DNA of 64,000 bases from Leptonemataceae bacterium (GTDB lineage Bacteria > Spirochaetota > Leptospiria > Leptospirales > Leptonemataceae), in the NCBI GenBank assembly GCA_965227295.1, contig OZ245742.1, positions 128,001-192,000 of the forward strand. The letters are read 5' to 3'. Positions within the stretch are counted from its first letter, which is position 1; the number at the start of each line of letters is the position of its first letter. A program made the translations under genes and the position numbers. The notes beneath the pieces are model-generated. The model worked only from the letters and a program-made list of their open reading frames with translations. It searched no databases and was not told the origin of the DNA. This document shows, one piece after another, positions 49,286 through 57,596 of the stretch.

Positions 49286-51070
49286 ATTCTCGAAATCGCA
49301 TTCGTTCTCGTACTGATCGTCGCCTTCTTGCTGGTGCTGGCCTTCGAAAAGCTCCGGCCGGACACGGCCGCGCTCTGCGTCATGGCGGCGCTCATGCTCG
49401 GCGGCGTCGTCGACCCCGGCGAAGCCGTGCAGGGATTCGCCAACAAGGCCACGCTCACCGTGGGCGCCATGTTCGTTTTGAGCGCCGGTCTCTTAAAGTC
49501 AGGTGCGCTGAACTTTGTGGCGGACAGCCTCGGCCACGTCTTTGATCGCAATTTCTGGGCCGGCCTCATTGCCATGATGTTTCTCATCGGCGCCGTGTCG
49601 GGTTTCATCAACAATACCGCTGCCGTGGCCATCTTCCTGCCGTTGATCCTGCGTGCCGCCCGCCGTGCGGAGGTCTCCGCTTCGAAGGTGCTTATGCCGC
49701 TATCGTTCGCCTCGATGTTCGGCGGGGTCTGCACGTTGATCGGCACGTCCACGAACATCCTGGTGAGTTCCATCGCCGCGGAGCGCGGCCTGGAACCCTT
49801 CGGCATGTTCGAGTTCGCGCCCCTGGGCGTGTTGATCTTCGCCGCCGGCCTGCCGTACATGCTGTTCGCGGCCGCGCGCCTGATTCCCGAACGCGAAGCA
49901 GGCCGGGAAAACTTAACCGGTGATTTTCAGATGGCGAACTATCTCACCGACGTCCGCGTTCTCCAGGATGCGGGCTGGGCCGGCAAGGCCATGCGGGAGT
50001 CACCCTTCTGCGACGGCACCGACGACGACATCGAGATCCTGGCCGTTTATCGCGAAGACGAAGTACTGAAGAATCTCAGCGGAGATACGATCCTCAAGGT
50101 CGGCGACGTGCTCCGCATTCGCAGCGACGTCGAGCGCATCCGCGACCTACAACGTTCCCGCGGCGTGCTGGTTCTCGCTTCCGGCGGATTCCAGGACAAG
50201 GACCTGAACACCGATGAGGCCGTCCTGCTGGAAGCCGTGATCGCGCCGAACTCGCCGATCTCCGGCAAGACACTAAAAAAAACACGGCTGCTCAAAAATT
50301 ATGGCGCTTCGATTCTCGCCATCGGCCGACGCGGTCGCATCTTACACGAGCGCCTGGACGAGGTGGAACTCGGCCCCGGGAACACCCTGCTCCTTCAGAT
50401 ACCGCCGGAGCAACGCGAAGATCTCACGAACGATCCGGCATTCGTGATGGCCTCCGAGGTACCGGAGCCCGAGGAACGTCCGGCAAAGATCTGGCCGTCG
50501 GTGTTGATCGTCGCGTCCGTGGTGACCCTGGCTGCGGCGGGTGTCTTTTCGATTCTAACAGCCAGCATCGCCGGCGCCGTGCTGATGATTCTTACCGGCT
50601 GCCTGCGCGCCGAGGAGGCCTACGAGGCCATCGACTGGCAGGTCATCTTTTTGCTCGCAGGTGTGCTCAGTCTCGGCGTCGCCCTGGAAACCACCGGCGG
50701 TGCGGAACTGCTCGCCGACGGCATTGCGAAGTACCTGGGACCGCTCGGTCCCGCGTTTATTGTATCGGCGATCTTTCTCGTAACGTTCCTGTTGACGAAC
50801 GTCATTTCCAACAACGCCTCGGCCGCGCTCTTTGCCCCCGTCGCGATTACCCTGGCCGAATCCCTGAACGTCGACCCGCGCCCGCTGCTCATGGCAGTGA
50901 CCTTCGCCGCGTCGCTGTCGTTCATGACGCCCATCGGCTACCAGACGAACACCTTCATTTACGGGCCGGGTCGTTATAAATTCGGCGACTTCTTTCGCGT
51001 GGGTACCCCGCTGAACTTTATTCTGTGGGTCATCGCATCGGTGATGATTCCGGTGATCTGGCCGTTTTAA
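49286..51070 (+). CDS. SLC13/DASS-family transporter with two TrkA-C domains
   Basis: GFINNTAAV, LIGTSTNI, SNNASAAL, TPIGYQTN; start possibly ATT at 49283/49286 (ORF track gives TTG at 49328). Confidence 0.9.
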   Translation: MLEIAFVLVLIVAFLLVLAFEKLRPDTAALCVMAALMLGGVVDPGEAVQGFANKATLTVGAMFVLSAGLLKSGALNFVADSLGHVFDRNFWAGLIAMMFLIGAVSGFINNTAAVAIFLPLILRAARRAEVSASKVLMPLSFASMFGGVCTLIGTSTNILVSSIAAERGLEPFGMFEFAPLGVLIFAAGLPYMLFAAARLIPEREAGRENLTGDFQMANYLTDVRVLQDAGWAGKAMRESPFCDGTDDDIEILAVYREDEVLKNLSGDTILKVGDVLRIRSDVERIRDLQRSRGVLVLASGGFQDKDLNTDEAVLLEAVIAPNSPISGKTLKKTRLLKNYGASILAIGRRGRILHERLDEVELGPGNTLLLQIPPEQREDLTNDPAFVMASEVPEPEERPAKIWPSVLIVASVVTLAAAGVFSILTASIAGAVLMILTGCLRAEEAYEAIDWQVIFLLAGVLSLGVALETTGGAELLADGIAKYLGPLGPAFIVSAIFLVTFLLTNVISNNASAALFAPVAITLAESLNVDPRPLLMAVTFAASLSFMTPIGYQTNTFIYGPGRYKFGDFFRVGTPLNFILWVIASVMIPVIWPF

Positions 51071-51187
51071 GGATCTTGTCGAGCCTTCGAAAAAAAGCAC
51101 CGCTGTCCCTTGCAACCTGCTGTGGACCAAAAAAAATCTCTAGACACGCCCCCCTTCAAATCGTCCCATATCCATCCGAGGTCTCTT

Positions 51188-51346
51188 ATGAATCCGAATC
51201 ATGCCGAAGAACTGACCAACCTTGCACCGAACGCGGACATTGCTCCGGACGCTCTGGCGCGCGTGGTCGACGAAGTGCGCGCTGAAGCGCAAATCAGCCC
51301 CGACCGCTACCTGAACGAAACGATCGTTCCGGAAGGCGGCGAGTAA
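51188..51346 (+). CDS. Pup/UBact-like small protein modifier (52 aa, C-terminal GGE)
   Basis: GAGG RBS; MNPNHAEELTNLAPNADIAPDALARVVDEVRAEAQISPDRYLNETIVPEGGE*; directly upstream of a PafA-family ligase. Confidence 0.8.
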   Translation: MNPNHAEELTNLAPNADIAPDALARVVDEVRAEAQISPDRYLNETIVPEGGE

Positions 51347-51357
51347 GTCGCTTCTCC

Positions 51358-53235
51358 GTGGTCGCATCCCGGCTGTTCGGCCAGGAGACGGAGTATGCCA
51401 TCCGTTTCTCGGCTCCGGCCGGGTCTGAGTCCGCGGAGCGCCCCGATCATTCCCTCATCTTCCACGCCTTTCGTGCGGCCGTAAAAAAGTTCGTCCGCAT
51501 CCGCCCCGGCGAGTGGTCGTTCTTCAAAGAATCCTTCTTCGTCGAGAACGGCGGCGCCTTTAACTACGAATCCCAGCCCTATGCCCCCGAGGCCGGCCTC
51601 ATCGAGGGGGCCACACCGGAATGCCGTTCGCCCCTGGAGTGCCTCGTCTACCAGCGCGCCCAGGAGCAACTGCTCCTCCGGGCCATCCCCGAGGCCGAGG
51701 CCTATTTACGACGCAAGGGTTTTCCGGGTTCCCTCGGCCTCCTGAAAAATTGCCGCGACGCCGAAGGCCACATCTACGGCGCCCAGGAAAACTACGGAAC
51801 GGACATTGCCTCGGGCCTGCGTCTCTGGCTGTATCGGATGGGGCTCGTGTTGTGCCTGCCGCTGCTGTTGTTCTGGTGGGTCCTGTATATGGGCTGCCTT
51901 ACGCTCGTCGTTACGCTGTCGCTGTTGGTACAGTTCTGTCTCTGGCTCGGCTATAGTTTGCTGCACGGCTTCTTAAGTTTTCCCGCCTGGATGTTACGCA
52001 GCGCATTCTTGCAAAAACGCGTAGACGATCTTACGGCCTTCAAGGATCGGCTGGCCGCGCGCTGGTCCATGTTCTCCGAGAGTACCGAGTTTCATCGGCT
52101 CATCGCCCGCCTGGAGTATACGATCTTCTTTCCGCCGACGCTGATTATCCTCTGGCCGTACACGCTGCTGCTGCGTCTGTGCGCCTTCGTACCCCAGCGC
52201 CGCCAGTTGACGGCGTTTTTCGCGTCCCGGGTAATCTTCACCGGCGCCGGCACGTTGCTGGAAGCCGGAGCAGATGCCGGTGGCGGCGTATTTGCCCTTT
52301 CGGAAAAGGGCACCGCCGTAAAACGCATGAATCGAATCACCATCGGTCCCGAGGACCGGCCGCTCTTCGACAACGGCAATCTGCACAAGGCCTTCATGCT
52401 GGCCGGACTGAGCACGCTGGTGTTGCGACCGGCTTCGTTCCTGGGACTCTTCACGCGCCGGTCACGTTTTCAAATCGGTATGGCCGACTCCAACCGCGCC
52501 CAGTTTGCCGAGTATTTGAAGTTCGGGACGAGCCTGTTGGTCCTGGACGCCTTCGAGGCCGGCTACTTAAAAGATGCGCCGCGCCTGCGCCGGCCGGTAC
52601 GCTCCCTGCGTGAGCTCGTCCACGATTGCAGCCTGAGCACGAGCGTGCCCGTACATCGCCTTACAACGACGGACGGCGAACGCAAACGCAACGCAAACGC
52701 CCTGGAGCTCCAGCGCTGGTACCTGGAACGCGTGCGGCAGTATCTACACGACCGCGACGCCGACGAGGGCGCGGCGTCCATTACACCGGAGCGAGTGGAG
52801 GAACGCGAGATTTTCCGGCTATGGTCGGAATGCCTGGATCTCTTAACTGACGATCCGGGAAAGTTAATCGGCCGACTGGATTGGGTTACGAAACGTTATC
52901 TCATCGAAGCCGCCGGACGCGACCTGGCCTTCTCCGCGCAGAAGAAGATCGACCTGGGCTACCACGAACTCGGCGGCGCCTATTTCGATCGCCTGGAAGC
53001 CGAGGGCATTGCACCGAAGCTCGCCCCGGACGATGCCGTGAGCACGGCCGTATTCCAGCCCTCGTCGCCGGAGCGGGTCCAGCTCCGCTCGCGTCTGATT
53101 CGGGACAGCAGTTACGGCGGGCGACGCATTACCGTATCCTGGAACCGTGTACGCATCGGCGACTGGTGGGACCGTAAGATCATCTCTCTTGATGTTTACC
53201 GCAATCAAAAGAACAAGGGCGACGGGCATCCATGA
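51358..53235 (+). CDS. PafA/Dop-family (PafA2) ligase with transmembrane insertion
   Basis: RLFGQETEY, ENGG, EGATPEC, KNCRDAEGHIYGAQENY, RVIFTGAG, DSNRAQFAEYLKFGT, LDWVTK, IDLGYHEL, collinear with PafA motifs. Confidence 0.9.
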   Translation: MVASRLFGQETEYAIRFSAPAGSESAERPDHSLIFHAFRAAVKKFVRIRPGEWSFFKESFFVENGGAFNYESQPYAPEAGLIEGATPECRSPLECLVYQRAQEQLLLRAIPEAEAYLRRKGFPGSLGLLKNCRDAEGHIYGAQENYGTDIASGLRLWLYRMGLVLCLPLLLFWWVLYMGCLTLVVTLSLLVQFCLWLGYSLLHGFLSFPAWMLRSAFLQKRVDDLTAFKDRLAARWSMFSESTEFHRLIARLEYTIFFPPTLIILWPYTLLLRLCAFVPQRRQLTAFFASRVIFTGAGTLLEAGADAGGGVFALSEKGTAVKRMNRITIGPEDRPLFDNGNLHKAFMLAGLSTLVLRPASFLGLFTRRSRFQIGMADSNRAQFAEYLKFGTSLLVLDAFEAGYLKDAPRLRRPVRSLRELVHDCSLSTSVPVHRLTTTDGERKRNANALELQRWYLERVRQYLHDRDADEGAASITPERVEEREIFRLWSECLDLLTDDPGKLIGRLDWVTKRYLIEAAGRDLAFSAQKKIDLGYHELGGAYFDRLEAEGIAPKLAPDDAVSTAVFQPSSPERVQLRSRLIRDSSYGGRRITVSWNRVRIGDWWDRKIISLDVYRNQKNKGDGHP

Positions 53236-53609
53236 GATTGAGCCGAACGGCGTTTGTAATCTTTCTGGGCCTGTGTTGCGGCGGCTGTTACTCCGCATCC
53301 TTCCGTCCGGCGGACGATTATCCGAACCTGCGACGGATAGACGTGCAACCAGGCGACGTCGTGCTCGTCTACGAGCGCCCGGAACGATCTTTCGTAATTC
53401 TCGGTGGTATGGAAGTTCGTGACGTCGACAGTTTGCGCGATCCGGATTTTCAGGAGTTCGTCCGGGCGGAAGCGGCCCGCCGCGGCAGTACGGGTGCCTG
53501 GGTTCTCAGCAACAGCGCGCGCACCGCGGCCCATGCGACGTTCGGTGAGTGGTTCAACCCGGGCGGCGGCATCGGCATCGTACGCGTGTTGTTGTTTCAC
53601 TTTGAGTAG
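53232..53609 (+). CDS. Small lipoprotein translationally coupled to the ligase
   Basis: ATGA overlap; signal MRLSRTAFVIFLGLCCGGC. Confidence 0.65.
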   Translation: MRLSRTAFVIFLGLCCGGCYSASFRPADDYPNLRRIDVQPGDVVLVYERPERSFVILGGMEVRDVDSLRDPDFQEFVRAEAARRGSTGAWVLSNSARTAAHATFGEWFNPGGGIGIVRVLLFHFE

Positions 53610-53628
53610 CGTGAGCGTAGTTTTTTAC

Positions 53629-53945
53629 ATGTTGCTGCGCAAAGAAGACCAGGACGGCATTGCGCGTTTTTGCGATCAGATCGCCGGCGCGGTTTGCACT
53701 GCTTTGTTACTCCGACAGATGGAGGAGGAACGTCGCACGGCGGACCGCCTGCTGCTGAACGTGCTGCCGGAGGCGGTGGCCGCGGAACTTAAAGAACACG
53801 GCCGGGTCGAACCGCAAACCTACGGAACCGCGTCGGTTCTGTTCACGGACTTCAAGGGTTTCACCGCGGCTACGACGTCCGGGGCTACGACGTCCGGGGC
53901 GACGCCGTTAACGTCGCCACGCGCATGGAATCCAACAGCGATCCG
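53629..53945 (+). pseudogene. Internally deleted class III adenylate/guanylate cyclase
   Basis: DRLLLNVLPEAVAAELK...SVLFTDFKGFT, then in another frame YDVRGDAVNVATRMES; the catalytic core between them is missing. Confidence 0.85.
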
Positions 53946-53961
53946 CAGCGAGGTGCAGGAA

Positions 53962-55482
53962 TCACGCCAGCTCTCCCTTCTTGACCTTGCCGTTCGGTGT
54001 TCGCGGCAAGGCATCGAGGAACGTCAGTACTCGCGGACACTTATAATCCGCTAAGTTGTTTCGCGCAAACTCTAAGACTTCCACCTCGAAGCGCGCTCGA
54101 TCCGTCGCATCCAACTGCCCGGTCGTTCGCCCGCTTCGCGCCGCATCACTCAACACCACGAACGCGCCGATCATCCGCAAATCCCGCACCTGAACCTCGC
54201 GCACGGCAACCTCGGCAATCAAATCGCAGCCCGCCAGCGCGCGCTCGACTTCCAGCGGCGACACGCGATAGCCGAAGGCGTTCATAACATCGTCGGCGCG
54301 GCCGTCATAATGAACGTAGCCGTCGGCGTCGATGCTCGCGCGATCGCCGCCGCAAAACCATTCGCCGTTTCGCAGCGGCAATTCCGGCGCCTGGTCCGGG
54401 CCGCGCCAGTAGCCGAGCATGAGCCCGGGATCGTCCCGGTGCACGGCGAGCAGGCCCGCCCCGGATTCGTCCGCCGCCTGAATCGTTACACGTCGGCCGG
54501 GCTGCGGCCGCCCCGGAAGCCCCGGCCGTACCGGCACCGCGGGGCCGCTGGAAATGTACGTGGAGATCTCGCTCATACCCAGGGCCTCGTAGAGTTCGCG
54601 CCCGGTAGCCTCTTTCCAGGCCGCATACAATTCCGGCGACAACGCCTCGCCGGCCGTAAGGCCGTGGCGCAGCTGCGAGTCACGCACTAACGTTAAGTCA
54701 CCGTACTTTAGTATGCGTCGATACAACGACGGCACCGCGGCGAAGAGGCTCGCCCCCTGTTCCTGGATCAATCGCGGCCAGACGCCCGGTTCGATCCAAC
54801 CGCGCACGAGCACGGCCGCAGCCCCCGCGGCCCAGGGATCCATCAACCCGACGCCGAGGCTGTAGGTCCAGTTGAGTTGCCCCGCATGGAGCAGGCGATC
54901 CTCCGGCCGCAGATCAATCCAACCGGGACCCGCGATCGGGCGGCGCCCGAGGATACTGCGATGCGCGTGCAGGACGCCCTTTGGTTCGCCGGTGGTCCCG
55001 CTGGTGTAAATCAAGAACGCCGGATCGTCCGCATGCGTTTCCGCGAACGATGCGCCCGGCCTCGATTCTTTAAGTTCTGAAAATGTTACATTAACATCCG
55101 AAGCACGCTTCGGCAACGGCAATCCGGGATCGCCGCACACGAGCGCCGGCCGGGCATGCTCGATCAAGAAGCGTACTTCCGGCGCGCTCAGTTGCGGCGA
55201 AACGGGAACCGGCACCAACCCCGCGGCGACGGCTCCGAAGAACGCGAAGGCGAATTCCGGCCCGTGTTCCAGGCGCACCAGCAATCGTTCCCCGCGCCCC
55301 AGCCTGCGCAGGCCCGCGGCGACCGCCAGTACCTCCGCGCGCACTTCGGCAAAACTCCACTCCCGCACCGACAACGTTCCGCTCGCCGCGACGTCGACAA
55401 ACACGAGCGCCGTATCGTCGTCCCGACGCAGGCCGTCTCGTTCCGCAAGGCAATGGGCCGCAAGATTCAACAGGCCGGACAT
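53962..55482 (-). CDS. AMP-binding acyl-CoA synthetase (benzoate-CoA ligase-like)
   Basis: IYTSGTTGEPKGVLH, LGMSE, GRADDVMNAFGYRVSPLEVE, LPRTPNGKV. Confidence 0.92.
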   Translation of the reverse strand: MSGLLNLAAHCLAERDGLRRDDDTALVFVDVAASGTLSVREWSFAEVRAEVLAVAAGLRRLGRGERLLVRLEHGPEFAFAFFGAVAAGLVPVPVSPQLSAPEVRFLIEHARPALVCGDPGLPLPKRASDVNVTFSELKESRPGASFAETHADDPAFLIYTSGTTGEPKGVLHAHRSILGRRPIAGPGWIDLRPEDRLLHAGQLNWTYSLGVGLMDPWAAGAAAVLVRGWIEPGVWPRLIQEQGASLFAAVPSLYRRILKYGDLTLVRDSQLRHGLTAGEALSPELYAAWKEATGRELYEALGMSEISTYISSGPAVPVRPGLPGRPQPGRRVTIQAADESGAGLLAVHRDDPGLMLGYWRGPDQAPELPLRNGEWFCGGDRASIDADGYVHYDGRADDVMNAFGYRVSPLEVERALAGCDLIAEVAVREVQVRDLRMIGAFVVLSDAARSGRTTGQLDATDRARFEVEVLEFARNNLADYKCPRVLTFLDALPRTPNGKVKKGELA

Positions 55483-55580: not shown

Positions 55581-57596
55581 ATGACGGTCCCCCGCGATGC
55601 GCTGAACGATCATCGCCTGTTCTTTACGGCGCAACCGTTGTTCGAGAACATCGCGCCGCGCAGTGCGGCCTTCCGCAAGTTTCTCGATCAGGTGGAGCTC
55701 GTGCTCTACGCCCGCTCCGAGGAAATCTACGAACCAGGCACGCAATCGGATTATCTCTACCTGGTCCGGGACGGCGAGGTGCACATCGTTTATGGCCAGG
55801 GAAACGGACCGGCACGCACCATCGGCATTCATGGTCGGGGCAGCATCTTCGGCGAGGTCAGCTTTCTCACGCGCGAACCGCATTCATCCTTCGCCGTCGC
55901 CACCCTGGACTCCCACATCTATCGCATCCCCGGGGAAGCCTTCGTCGAACTCATGACCGCCGAGGCCGGCGTCGGACGGGTTATGACTTCCATGTTGTCG
56001 CGCCGATTGCGGCGTTCGCTGTACGAAGAGAGCCACGCGCATCCGGCTTCGATTCATGCGTTGTTTTACCCGGAAGATCCGGAGCGCGGCAGTGAGGTCT
56101 GCGCGGCGCTGGGCGAAGCGTTGGTCCTGGAAAACCCCGGGCCGGTGTTGATCCTTACGTTGAACCCGGCCTCAATGTTCGCCCATCATGAAAACGTAAA
56201 CGGTCTTTCACGCATCTTAGAAAAGTGGCCGGCCGTTCGCATCGAAGAGATGCTCGGTTACATGGATCATCCGGCCGGCTTCGATCTGCTCGTCGCCAAC
56301 GAGGTCTACGGCATGGAGCTGAACCTCGATCGTGTGGTGCAGCTCATGCCGGATTTCCTCGGACGCCTGCGCAAGTACTACGCCACCATCCTGGTGGACG
56401 CCGGCGGTCTCGTCGAGAACCCGGTGCTCTCCCGCGTGCTCTCACAGAGCGACTACGTAATGTTCGTGCGAAACCCCCACGGGGAAAACGATTCCCGCGC
56501 GGGCCGACGCTTTCGTGAAGTCATCGCCTACTGCACGGAGCTAATGGATGATTTTTTCGAACGCGCCATCATTATCTCCGACGAATGCGAGGAGCGCCAC
56601 GGCGGCGCACCGGCGGACTGGCGCGGCTGGAATCCGAACTCGGCCCTGTACAAACGGCACATGCGATTGTCGTGCGTGAGCGGGGGGCCGGCCCATCGCA
56701 TCGAAGAACGCGCATTTCAGATCGGCATCAATCGAATCGCGCGCAAGCTCTCGGGAACCTCGCGCGGCCTCGTCCTCGGCGGCGGCGGGGCGCGGGCCTT
56801 CGCTCACATCGGCGTTATGGAAGTTCTCGACCGCGAAGGCATCGACTTCGACGCGGTGACCGGAACTTCCATGGGTGCGGTCATCGGCTGCGGCTACGCG
56901 ATGGGCCGGGACGCCTCGGAGCTGGCGTACCTCGTGAAACAGATCATCCCGGACTCCGACGCGATCCTCGATAAACGTTTGCCGCTCGTAAGTTTCTTTC
57001 GCGGCAAGAAACTGAACAAGGCGATTCTTTCCGCCTTCGGCAACACGCGCTTCGAAGACCTGGAGATTCCGTTCTACTGCAACGCCGCCGATCTCAACAC
57101 GGCCCAGAGCGTCATCTTCGAACAGGGCTTCGTCTCCACGGCCATTCGCGCTTCGGTCAGTCTGCCCGGCATCTTTCCACCGATGAAACTCGGGCCCTAC
57201 GACCTGGTGGACGGCGGCGTCCTGAATAATCTGCCGGGGGACATCTTACGCGATAAGGGCTTCAACCGCATCATCGGTGTGAACGTTACCCCGCTCGAGG
57301 ACCACCGTTCCTCGGACACCCAGGTGGAAGATCGCCCCGGCGGTCTGTTTCAAAAGATCAAAGACTATTTCAGCCTGCCCCCGATACTGAAAATCATTTA
57401 CCGTTCCACCACGATCCAGGGCATCGAGTTACTCAAGCTGCGTCTGGACGACTTCGATTACCTGTTTCACCCGGACATTGCGCCGTGGGACATCTTCGAT
57501 TTTCACCGGCGCGACGAGATCATCGAAGCCGGTCGCCGCGCGGCTTTGGATAGCCTTCAGGAAATCAAGGACACGTTGTACCGACCGCGGATGTAG
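55581..57596 (+). CDS. cNMP-binding patatin-like phospholipase (NTE/RssA family)
   Basis: cNMP domain [10 protein letters not shown]; patatin [20 protein letters not shown]. Confidence 0.92.

Follow-up and report, generated by a model that had tools for sequence, protein, structure and literature searches.

To our knowledge, the only known function of pupylation is to target proteins to the proteasome in Actinobacteria. Small tags ending in G-[EQ] and encoded beside a PafA-family ligase are also said to exist in Gram-negative bacteria under the name UBact, which Lehmann et al. reportedly described in 2017 from Nitrospirota, Verrucomicrobiota, and others; the UBact loci reportedly carry proteasome and ATPase genes, encode a soluble ligase, and have a different C-terminal motif. 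Here, we analyze a 64,000-nucleotide stretch of a Leptonemataceae genome (contig OZ245742.1, positions 128,001 to 192,000 of the forward strand; the whole stretch is referred to as the window), in which a gene for a 52-residue Pup-like tag directly precedes a gene for a Pup-ligase homologue with a hydrophobic insert. Unlike the reported UBact loci, the module has no linkage to proteasome genes, and we consider it probable that its 2 genes form a self-contained Pup-like conjugation system anchored in the inner membrane.

The nearest described counterpart is the class delineated by Iyer, Burroughs, and Aravind (2008; Biol Direct 3:45; PMC2588565). In the passages of that paper that deal with these genes, Plesiocystis and Rhodopirellula have genes for Pup and its ligase that are unlinked to proteasome genes, and a membrane-inserted Pup ligase is predicted to tag membrane-associated proteins in Plesiocystis pacifica and Rhodopirellula baltica. 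An earlier reading of the window, made from the sequence only, had pointed to PafA homologues with transmembrane segments predicted in myxobacteria and planctomycetes; this is correct and refers to exactly this class (Iyer et al., 2008; PMC2588565), so the idea of a membrane-anchored tagging module is not new. As far as those passages describe the class, it shares with our module a transmembrane insertion that directly follows core strand 4, a small neighboring gene whose product ends in G-[EQ], and the lack of proteasome linkage. The insert in the family of the window ligase likewise starts after a QENY motif and holds 2 or 3 hydrophobic 19-residue segments in 104 of 111 aligned members; Pirellulaceae and Nannocystaceae (Enhygromyxa) are represented in that family. 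The differences lie in the host, which is Leptospirales-like here, in the number of transmembrane segments, of which the 2008 account counts 4 whereas we mostly find 2 strong and 1 weaker hydrophobic segment, and in the linkage to a membrane-protein gene (see below). New relative to that account are the host, the wide spread of the family, the strict two-gene unit, a tag family that always ends in Glu (VPxGGE) and is missed by the Pup model of Pfam and by NCBIfam, the lack of any Dop, Mpa, or 20S core in 31 genomes, and confident structural models.

A conserved pair of tag and ligase genes

One genome per prokaryote species was scanned, and the best 80 of 259 genome stretches encoding a ligase relative were taken as related loci; the family counts below are based on sets of 81 tags, ligases, or loci, and the ligase alignment comprises 111 homologues. 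Tag and ligase are the only conserved neighbors in these loci and constitute a strict two-gene unit. Directly upstream of the ligase, 80/80 related loci carry a same-strand open reading frame (ORF) ending in G-E, as the sequence-only reading had anticipated for homologous ligases; the last 3 residues are GGE at 78 loci and DGE and EGE at 1 each, and none ends in Gln. The stop codon of this ORF mostly lies 4 to 60 nt from the start of the ligase match, to which, and not to the start codon, the distance was measured, and 109 to 404 nt from it in 6 loci. The pairing is not due to chance: the 6 frames of the 80 loci hold 17,588 stop-to-stop ORFs with 25 or more codons, of which 81 end in GGE; 78 of these 81 are the tags, which leaves a background of 3 among about 17,500 other ORFs of the same loci. 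When 4,163 ORFs of at least 70 residues from 81 loci were clustered by all-against-all BLASTP, the ligase was the only family that recurred around the locus (81/81), and the next real family was found at 9 loci; the tag lies under this size cut-off and was scored separately.

The acidic 52-residue ORF with its own ribosome-binding site, its PEGGE end, and its position 11 bp before a 625-residue protein were all confirmed by direct reading. The tag gene is present in a single copy (3e-16) in the source genome, which is assembled into one contig of 5.94 Mb with a completeness of 93.55%. For the alignment of 81 tags, the earliest suitable ATG was taken as the start. In this alignment, G51 and E52 never vary, D33, Y41, V47, and G50 are conserved in at least 90% of the sequences, and the C-terminal 20 residues follow the pattern D(A/S)x7(Y/F)Lx(E/D)(T/S)xVPxGGE. 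The N-terminus is variable, unlike this conserved C-terminal core; the median length is 53 to 54 residues, the median net charge is −4, and 15/81 tags have no lysine. Most of the related tags have a GGAG-like stretch 5′ of the chosen start. All 81 tags end in Glu and none in Gln, so no deamidase is required.

The window tag thus resembles Pup (PF05639) in being small and acidic, in adjoining a ligase gene, and in carrying a GGE end without processing. Iyer et al. (2008) define Pup by a length of 50 to 90 residues, a C-terminal G-[EQ], and a position adjacent to the ligase gene, all of which are found here. It differs from Pup in the conserved motif of its own family and in that no Mpa is present to recognize it. 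A search of a 1.84-billion-protein library with the window tag gave 16 matches at E ≤ 0.001, itself included; of the other 15, 13 are 50 to 72 residues long, and the small matches are called “hypothetical” wherever public sources give a name. The remaining 2 are long proteins of 2504 (P0128) and 617 residues (P0134, with 6 matched stretches), matched at E of about 1e-4, which could be low-complexity matches or repeats of tag-like helices. The ESM Atlas returned unnamed clusters of small proteins only, and no Pfam family matched the window tag at E ≤ 1.

The ligase is a member of the Pup_ligase family with, according to its structural model, the Dop/PafA fold, that is, a glutamine-synthetase-like β-sheet cradle followed by a helical C-terminal domain. 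The Pfam hidden Markov model Pup_ligase (PF03136) matches residues 5–598 over positions 1–440 of its 441 (E = 9.7e-64; 216.4 bits versus a cut-off of 25), a full-profile match that bears out the earlier family assignment. All 8 motifs of the PafA/Dop series that the sequence-only reading listed are present in the claimed order: GQETEY (residues 8–13), NGG (64–66), ATPEC (85–89), KNCRDAEGHIYGAQENY (130–146), GAG (296–298), DSN (377–379), LDWVTK (507–512), and DLGYH (532–536). In the 111-sequence alignment, E71, E83, E88, Q143, E144, G296, and G298 are invariant and G8, E10, E12, Y13, N64, N145, D377, and N379 are conserved in at least 90% of the sequences; a smaller alignment of 16 sequences has further invariant columns. 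The AlphaFold2 (AF2) model built with 111 homologues has a mean predicted local distance difference test (pLDDT) score of 95 and a predicted template modeling (TM) score of 0.93. Its top 10 Foldseek matches consist entirely of Dop and PafA chains (E = 1e-26 to 5e-18; target-normalized TM-score 0.71–0.82), led by Dop 5lrt (1.1e-26; target-normalized TM-score 0.81) and the PafA-Pup complex 4bjr (1.7e-25), and YbdK proteins, which are gamma-glutamylcysteine-ligase-like, rank far lower.

Compared with PafA (4b0t, 4bjr), the ligase thus has the same Pfam family and fold, a tag whose terminal Glu is usable directly, and an aligned series of motifs (GxETEY, NG, ATxEC, KN..D..G..YG..ENY, GAG, D(A/S)N, DWV.K, and DL.YH). 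It differs in its low identity (17% to 18% in the Foldseek alignments), a net membrane insert of about 100 residues, the replacement of the HENY His by Gln, some 19 additional residues ahead of strand 2, and the lack of a proteasome, Mpa, or Dop partner.

Putative membrane insert, predicted complex, and proteasome genes

The distance from the ENY motif to the GAG motif, about 29 residues in the Dop equivalent, spans 114 to 191 residues in the 111 family members, with a median of 128. In the model of the window ligase, the insert consists of helices 153–213, 216–240, 243–275, and 278–290, which directly follow the QENY strand (143–149) and end before GAG. Kyte-Doolittle windows reach 1.5 or more at residues 153–203 and 256–280, and weakly at 346–365. 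Across the family, hydrophobic 19-residue windows per insert number 3 in 63 members, 2 in 41, 1 in 4, and 4 in 3. Judging from the hydropathy, stretch 156–203 probably forms 2 membrane-spanning helices, and segment 256–280 may be re-entrant or interfacial. The mid-turn at 174–182 is uncharged, and residues 203–256 carry 8 Lys and Arg; by the positive-inside rule, this would give a two-helix membrane hairpin with the catalytic body wholly cytoplasmic.

Co-folding of tag and ligase yielded an interaction prediction score from aligned errors (ipSAE) of 0.85 in 3/3 runs, in which both family alignments were used, versus 0.00 for the best of 3 controls; in a benchmark of this score, the mark was reached by 58/80 solved complexes and 2/110 mismatched pairs. 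The runs share at least 70% of their contacts, with a partner pLDDT of 70 to 73. The modeled interface joins tag residues 17–52 to ligase residues 12–18, 71–81, 129–143, and 374 in the catalytic strands and 502–551 in the C-terminal domain. Tag residues 44–52 reach the catalytic strands, which would place the C-terminus of the tag in the active site, and no contact falls within the insert. The predicted binding site is the equivalent of the PafA groove. About 36 C-terminal residues of the window tag are thus predicted to dock on the ligase, comparable to the last 27 residues of Pup, which dock as 2 helices in the solved complexes as summarized in PMC8599861.

The earlier reading had found no 20S proteasome, ARC/Mpa ATPase, or second paralogue in the window, and the same holds for the whole 5.94-Mb genome. 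There, PF03136 has a single gene, compared with none in E. coli as a control, the only PF00227 match is HslV (285 bits versus a cut-off of 137), adjoining HslU, and no protein reaches the cut-off of the pup_AAA model for Mpa/ARC, the best being FtsH (144 versus 505 bits). Each of 30 other carrier genomes likewise has exactly 1 PF03136 gene; in 2 of these genomes, the insert splits the match. The PF00227 search of these 30 genomes gave 1 match in 20, none in 8, and 2 in 2, of which one pair is a split gene and the other includes a second match of 30.7 bits; no 20S alpha/beta pair was found among them. Many of the carriers are incomplete metagenome-assembled genomes (MAGs), so absence from any single one is weak evidence.

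Proposed mechanism and rival explanations

The interpretation of the locus as a self-sufficient two-gene conjugation module, put forward in the sequence-only reading, gains support from the family and fold of the ligase, the 80/80 linkage, the terminal Glu, and the lack of a proteasome, Mpa, or paralogue. In such a module, the acidic tag would bind the groove of the ligase C-terminal domain, with its terminal Gly-Gly-Glu reaching into the active site, which resembles that of glutamine synthetase. If the chemistry follows that of PafA, the gamma-carboxylate of the last Glu would be phosphorylated from ATP and then attacked by an amine, most likely that of a lysine side chain, to give an isopeptide bond. 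The helical insert (about 130 residues) leaves the core after the active-site strand QENY and should thereby keep the catalytic center at the membrane's cytoplasmic face; the acceptors would then probably be membrane or membrane-proximal proteins. We regard membrane-located protein lysines as the most likely acceptor, in which case the tag would modify membrane proteins. As there is only 1 ligase gene, any removal of the tag would fall to the same enzyme, and since neither a proteasome nor Mpa is present, the tag would serve as a mark for regulation or sorting or would signal to other machinery.

Several results weigh against this interpretation. A full-text literature search, which leaves most subscription journals outside, found no experimental study of a conjugate, acceptor, or activity for any member of the family. 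The ligase stays far below the cut-offs of the NCBIfam equivalogs for both PafA (TIGR03686; 155.4 versus 551.3 bits) and Dop (TIGR03688; 131.8 versus 492.3 bits), the Gln that replaces the His of HENY in PafA and Dop is invariant in the ligase family, and the PafA Asp (Asn in the 4bjr complex) aligns ambiguously, either with the invariant E71 or with the variable E78. As for the tag, the Pfam Pup model (PF05639) detects 0/81 family members at E up to 10; a six-frame Pup search of the genome gave nothing at the locus, with the control exceeding the threshold in Corynebacterium glutamicum alone; each NCBIfam model that matches at all does so in 4 or fewer of the 81 tags, and Pup and UBact models are not among them, the presence of a UBact model in that library being unconfirmed; and the tag profile retrieved no Pup chain from the PDB. 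With the tag missed by the Pup models and the PDB search, its homology to Pup is argued from context and the G-E ending only. Because PafA-Pup and Dop-Pup complexes have already been solved, the passing score of the complex indicates likeness and may reflect model memory. Finally, most members have an odd number of hydrophobic segments (3 in 63/111), and AF2 draws residues 153–213 as one long helix, which together leave the topology unsettled.

The higher score of the ligase family profile against Dop (208.7 bits) than against PafA (181.2 bits) in the PDB and the first rank of Dop in Foldseek, which make Dop (4b0r, 5lrt, 7oxy) the best structural and profile match, would fit an enzyme that is mainly a Dop-like hydrolase, a depupylase or deamidase, and not a ligase. 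The spacing between the GxETEY Gly and the E..T.EC Glu points partly in the same direction: it is 75 residues in our ligase (G8 to E83), 56 in PafA, and 93 in Dop, which places the ligase between the 2. The Dop-loop, in the account given in PMC8599861, is a conserved stretch of 40 to 65 residues before strand β2 that is found in all Dop and in no PafA. Planctomycete single-copy homologues align with it in part, share 29% to 31% identity with both PafA and Dop, and were taken as an outgroup to the PafA/Dop duplication, whose ancestor is argued to have been a ligase with promiscuous hydrolase activity, according to the relevant sections of Hecht et al. (2020; PMC7947786). The extra residues of our ligase before strand 2 are, however, modeled as an ordered helix and strand and not as a loop of 40 to 65 residues, so that the full Dop-loop appears to be lacking; residues 4–149 align in one unbroken piece with C. 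glutamicum PafA 10–136 and not with the N-terminus of Dop, against which only ligase residues 83–147 align in that region; and NCBIfam scores PafA (155 bits) above Dop (132 bits). With Glu at the end of 81/81 tags, and no Gln-ending tag, there is nothing to deamidate, and as the only family member in each of 31/31 genomes, a hydrolase would stand alone without a substrate. We therefore regard a hydrolase as exceedingly improbable.

The remaining alternatives concern the fate of the tag. Much as in Atg8-PE, it could be ligated to a non-protein amine of the membrane, either on the headgroup of phosphatidylethanolamine (PE) or of a different aminolipid or on an envelope precursor linked to lipid. 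Enzymes of the superfamily do join the gamma-glutamyl carboxylate to small amines, ammonia and cysteine among them, as mentioned in Iyer et al. (2008; PMC2588565) and Hecht et al. (2020; PMC7947786) where these enzymes are treated; no more than about 10 residues separate the active-site strand from the start of the membrane insert; and the module has no conserved protein partner or acceptor gene and needs nothing else conserved. Yet the characterized PF03136 members all have protein lysines or Pup itself as substrates, the surroundings contain no conserved gene for lipid handling, and no part of the sequence points specifically to a lipid-binding site, which makes a lipid acceptor quite unlikely in our estimate. 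It is very unlikely, in turn, that the small protein is not conjugated at all and serves as a regulatory subunit or inhibitor in the ligase groove, or as a precursor akin to the ribosomally synthesized and post-translationally modified peptides (RiPPs) that is modified at its C-terminus before export. A small peptide that is conserved in its C-terminal core and variable at its N-terminus, next to an enzyme in the membrane, would suit both roles, and 4/81 tags have weak NCBIfam matches to one cyclophane RiPP family (best E = 0.025); these matches are at noise level (13.7 versus a cut-off of 36 bits), and the pair has no conserved neighbor that encodes a protease, transporter, or radical-SAM protein. 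The invariant, ready-made terminal Gly-Glu is instead the hallmark of Pup-type conjugation, as set out in the part of Iyer et al. (2008; PMC2588565) that introduces it, and tag residues 44–52 extend to the catalytic strands in the modeled complex. A bolder version of the conjugation system that we favor would have an acceptor other than an ordinary lysine of a soluble protein: an aminolipid such as PE, as a prokaryotic counterpart of Atg8 lipidation, or inner-membrane proteins marked for extraction by a machine other than the proteasome, for example FtsH, with a single enzyme of ancestral type that both writes and erases the mark; we think it unlikely.

Neighboring genes, distribution, and implications

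The coordinates of the module and of its surroundings in the window are collected in Table 1. The 11-nt spacer suggests probable translational coupling of tag and ligase. Between positions 50900 and 54100, no promoter-like site was found, and the 4 terminator-like sites do not exceed the number in shuffled sequences.

Table 1. Positions of the tag–ligase module, its parts, and adjacent features in the window.
Feature	Positions	Strand	Remarks
CitMHS/TrkA_C transporter	49328–51070		
Shine-Dalgarno-like GAGG	51178–51181	+	6 nt 5′ of the tag ATG; read directly
Pup-like tag gene	51188–51346	+	52 aa, acidic, lysine-free; C-terminus VPEGGE-stop
Spacer	51347–51357	+	11 nt, from tag stop (TAA, 51344–51346) to ligase GTG (51358)
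Membrane-anchored Pup-ligase homologue (anchoring predicted)	51358–53235	+	625 aa; PF03136, AF2, Foldseek
Helical insert of the ligase	51805–52233	+	about aa 150–292, between ENY strand and GAG motif; alignment and AF2
Strongly hydrophobic stretch of the ligase	51823–51966	+	aa 156–203; Kyte-Doolittle mean up to 2.28
Weaker hydrophobic segment of the ligase	52123–52197	+	aa 256–280, conserved prolines; then conserved basic patch FRRxRR (alignment consensus)
Lipoprotein-like ORF	53232–53609	+	125 aa; 4-nt overlap of its ATG with the ligase stop (ATGA)
216-aa ORF	53404–54054	+	no Pfam family; 3′ end overlaps the convergent AMP-binding gene by about 90 nt
AMP-binding enzyme	53962–55482	−	convergent
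Cyclic-nucleotide-binding patatin protein	55581–57596	+	671 aa; cyclic-nucleotide-binding domain and patatin-like phospholipase domain

The neighbors of the pair in the window comprise an aldehyde dehydrogenase, the CitMHS/TrkA_C transporter, the lipoprotein-like ORF, the convergent AMP-binding enzyme, and the patatin protein, none of which is kept with the module beyond the genus, and the genes 3′ of the ligase vary among the related loci. The transporter was rejected as a module partner (0/86 loci). The lipoprotein-like ORF, which has an N-terminal hydrophobic stretch followed by Cys and no Pfam family, was recovered by tblastn at 4/86 loci from 2 genomes of the same genus and is a genus-specific passenger. 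The 216-residue ORF may not be a real gene or may be a remnant. A third conserved gene was not found either: beyond the ligase, the clustering gave only antisense shadow ORFs, and the next family, which is Ser/Thr-kinase-like, is confined to 9 loci. The membrane-protein gene whose linkage is noted in the 2008 passages has no general counterpart here, since DUF456, the candidate considered for it, occurs at 3/80 loci only, namely, 3′ of the ligase in 3 Planctomycetota loci (L083, 6094–6636; L086, 3423–3986; L087, 2616–3158); the DUF456 gene may nevertheless be the linkage noted for Rhodopirellula. Membrane-protein neighbors recur downstream of the ligase and are never of one same family; other examples are a YhhN family protein encoded from a start that overlaps the stop of the ligase gene (L057, 7695–8330) and an MFS transporter (L022, 3333–4550). 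A TPR-AAA ATPase was considered as a possible unfoldase for recognition of the tag and was rejected because it does not co-occur with the ligase, its full-length homologues being found in 2/8 ligase-positive and 3/16 ligase-negative relatives of the same family. This 481-residue protein (G000:C1:5532283-5533725, minus strand; L004, 1198–2640) has a TPR-like N-terminus and one classic AAA module and scores under every NCBIfam equivalog cut-off.

To assess the spread of the ligase, 7,999 candidates from a 5.8-billion-protein set were scored, of which 586 are relatives at E ≤ 0.001; the best 120 of these are 500 to 690 residues long, and all have PF03136. The carriers belong to at least 8 phyla (Spirochaetota, Myxococcota, Acidobacteriota, Planctomycetota, Verrucomicrobiota, Bdellovibrionota, MAGs labeled Pseudomonadota, and Vulcanimicrobiota), and isolates of Haliangium and Pseudenhygromyxa are among the sources of the relatives. 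Among the relatives of the source genome, PF03136 is found in 8/24 other genomes of the same family and in 0/16 of the sister family. A maximum-likelihood tree of 81 ligases (quick search, Shimodaira–Hasegawa-like approximate likelihood ratio test support only, midpoint root) groups the window ligase with those of Leptospirales MAGs in a well-supported mix of 18 rows from Spirochaetota, Bdellovibrionota, and Verrucomicrobiota; the Leptospirales-like host proposed in the sequence-only reading fits the nearest ligases, which come from Leptospirales MAGs. Behind one branch with a support of 100, all 22 Planctomycetota-labeled rows form a 24-row clade with 2 rows that have no phylum label. Phylum labels change 14 times on the tree versus 42.8 times when shuffled, which indicates inheritance mostly within phyla with some transfer.

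With 586 proteins and 259 genome stretches, the membrane-anchored, proteasome-free class is not a curiosity of 2 genomes. Since its ligases form a clade outside the PafA/Dop duplication, they may show what the ancestral, possibly bifunctional, enzyme did. Because 2 genes suffice and the tag needs no processing, the purpose of proteasome-free pupylation is open to study by heterologous co-expression, and proximity labeling at membranes could make use of a PafA-type ligase that is tethered there and has an orthogonal tag.

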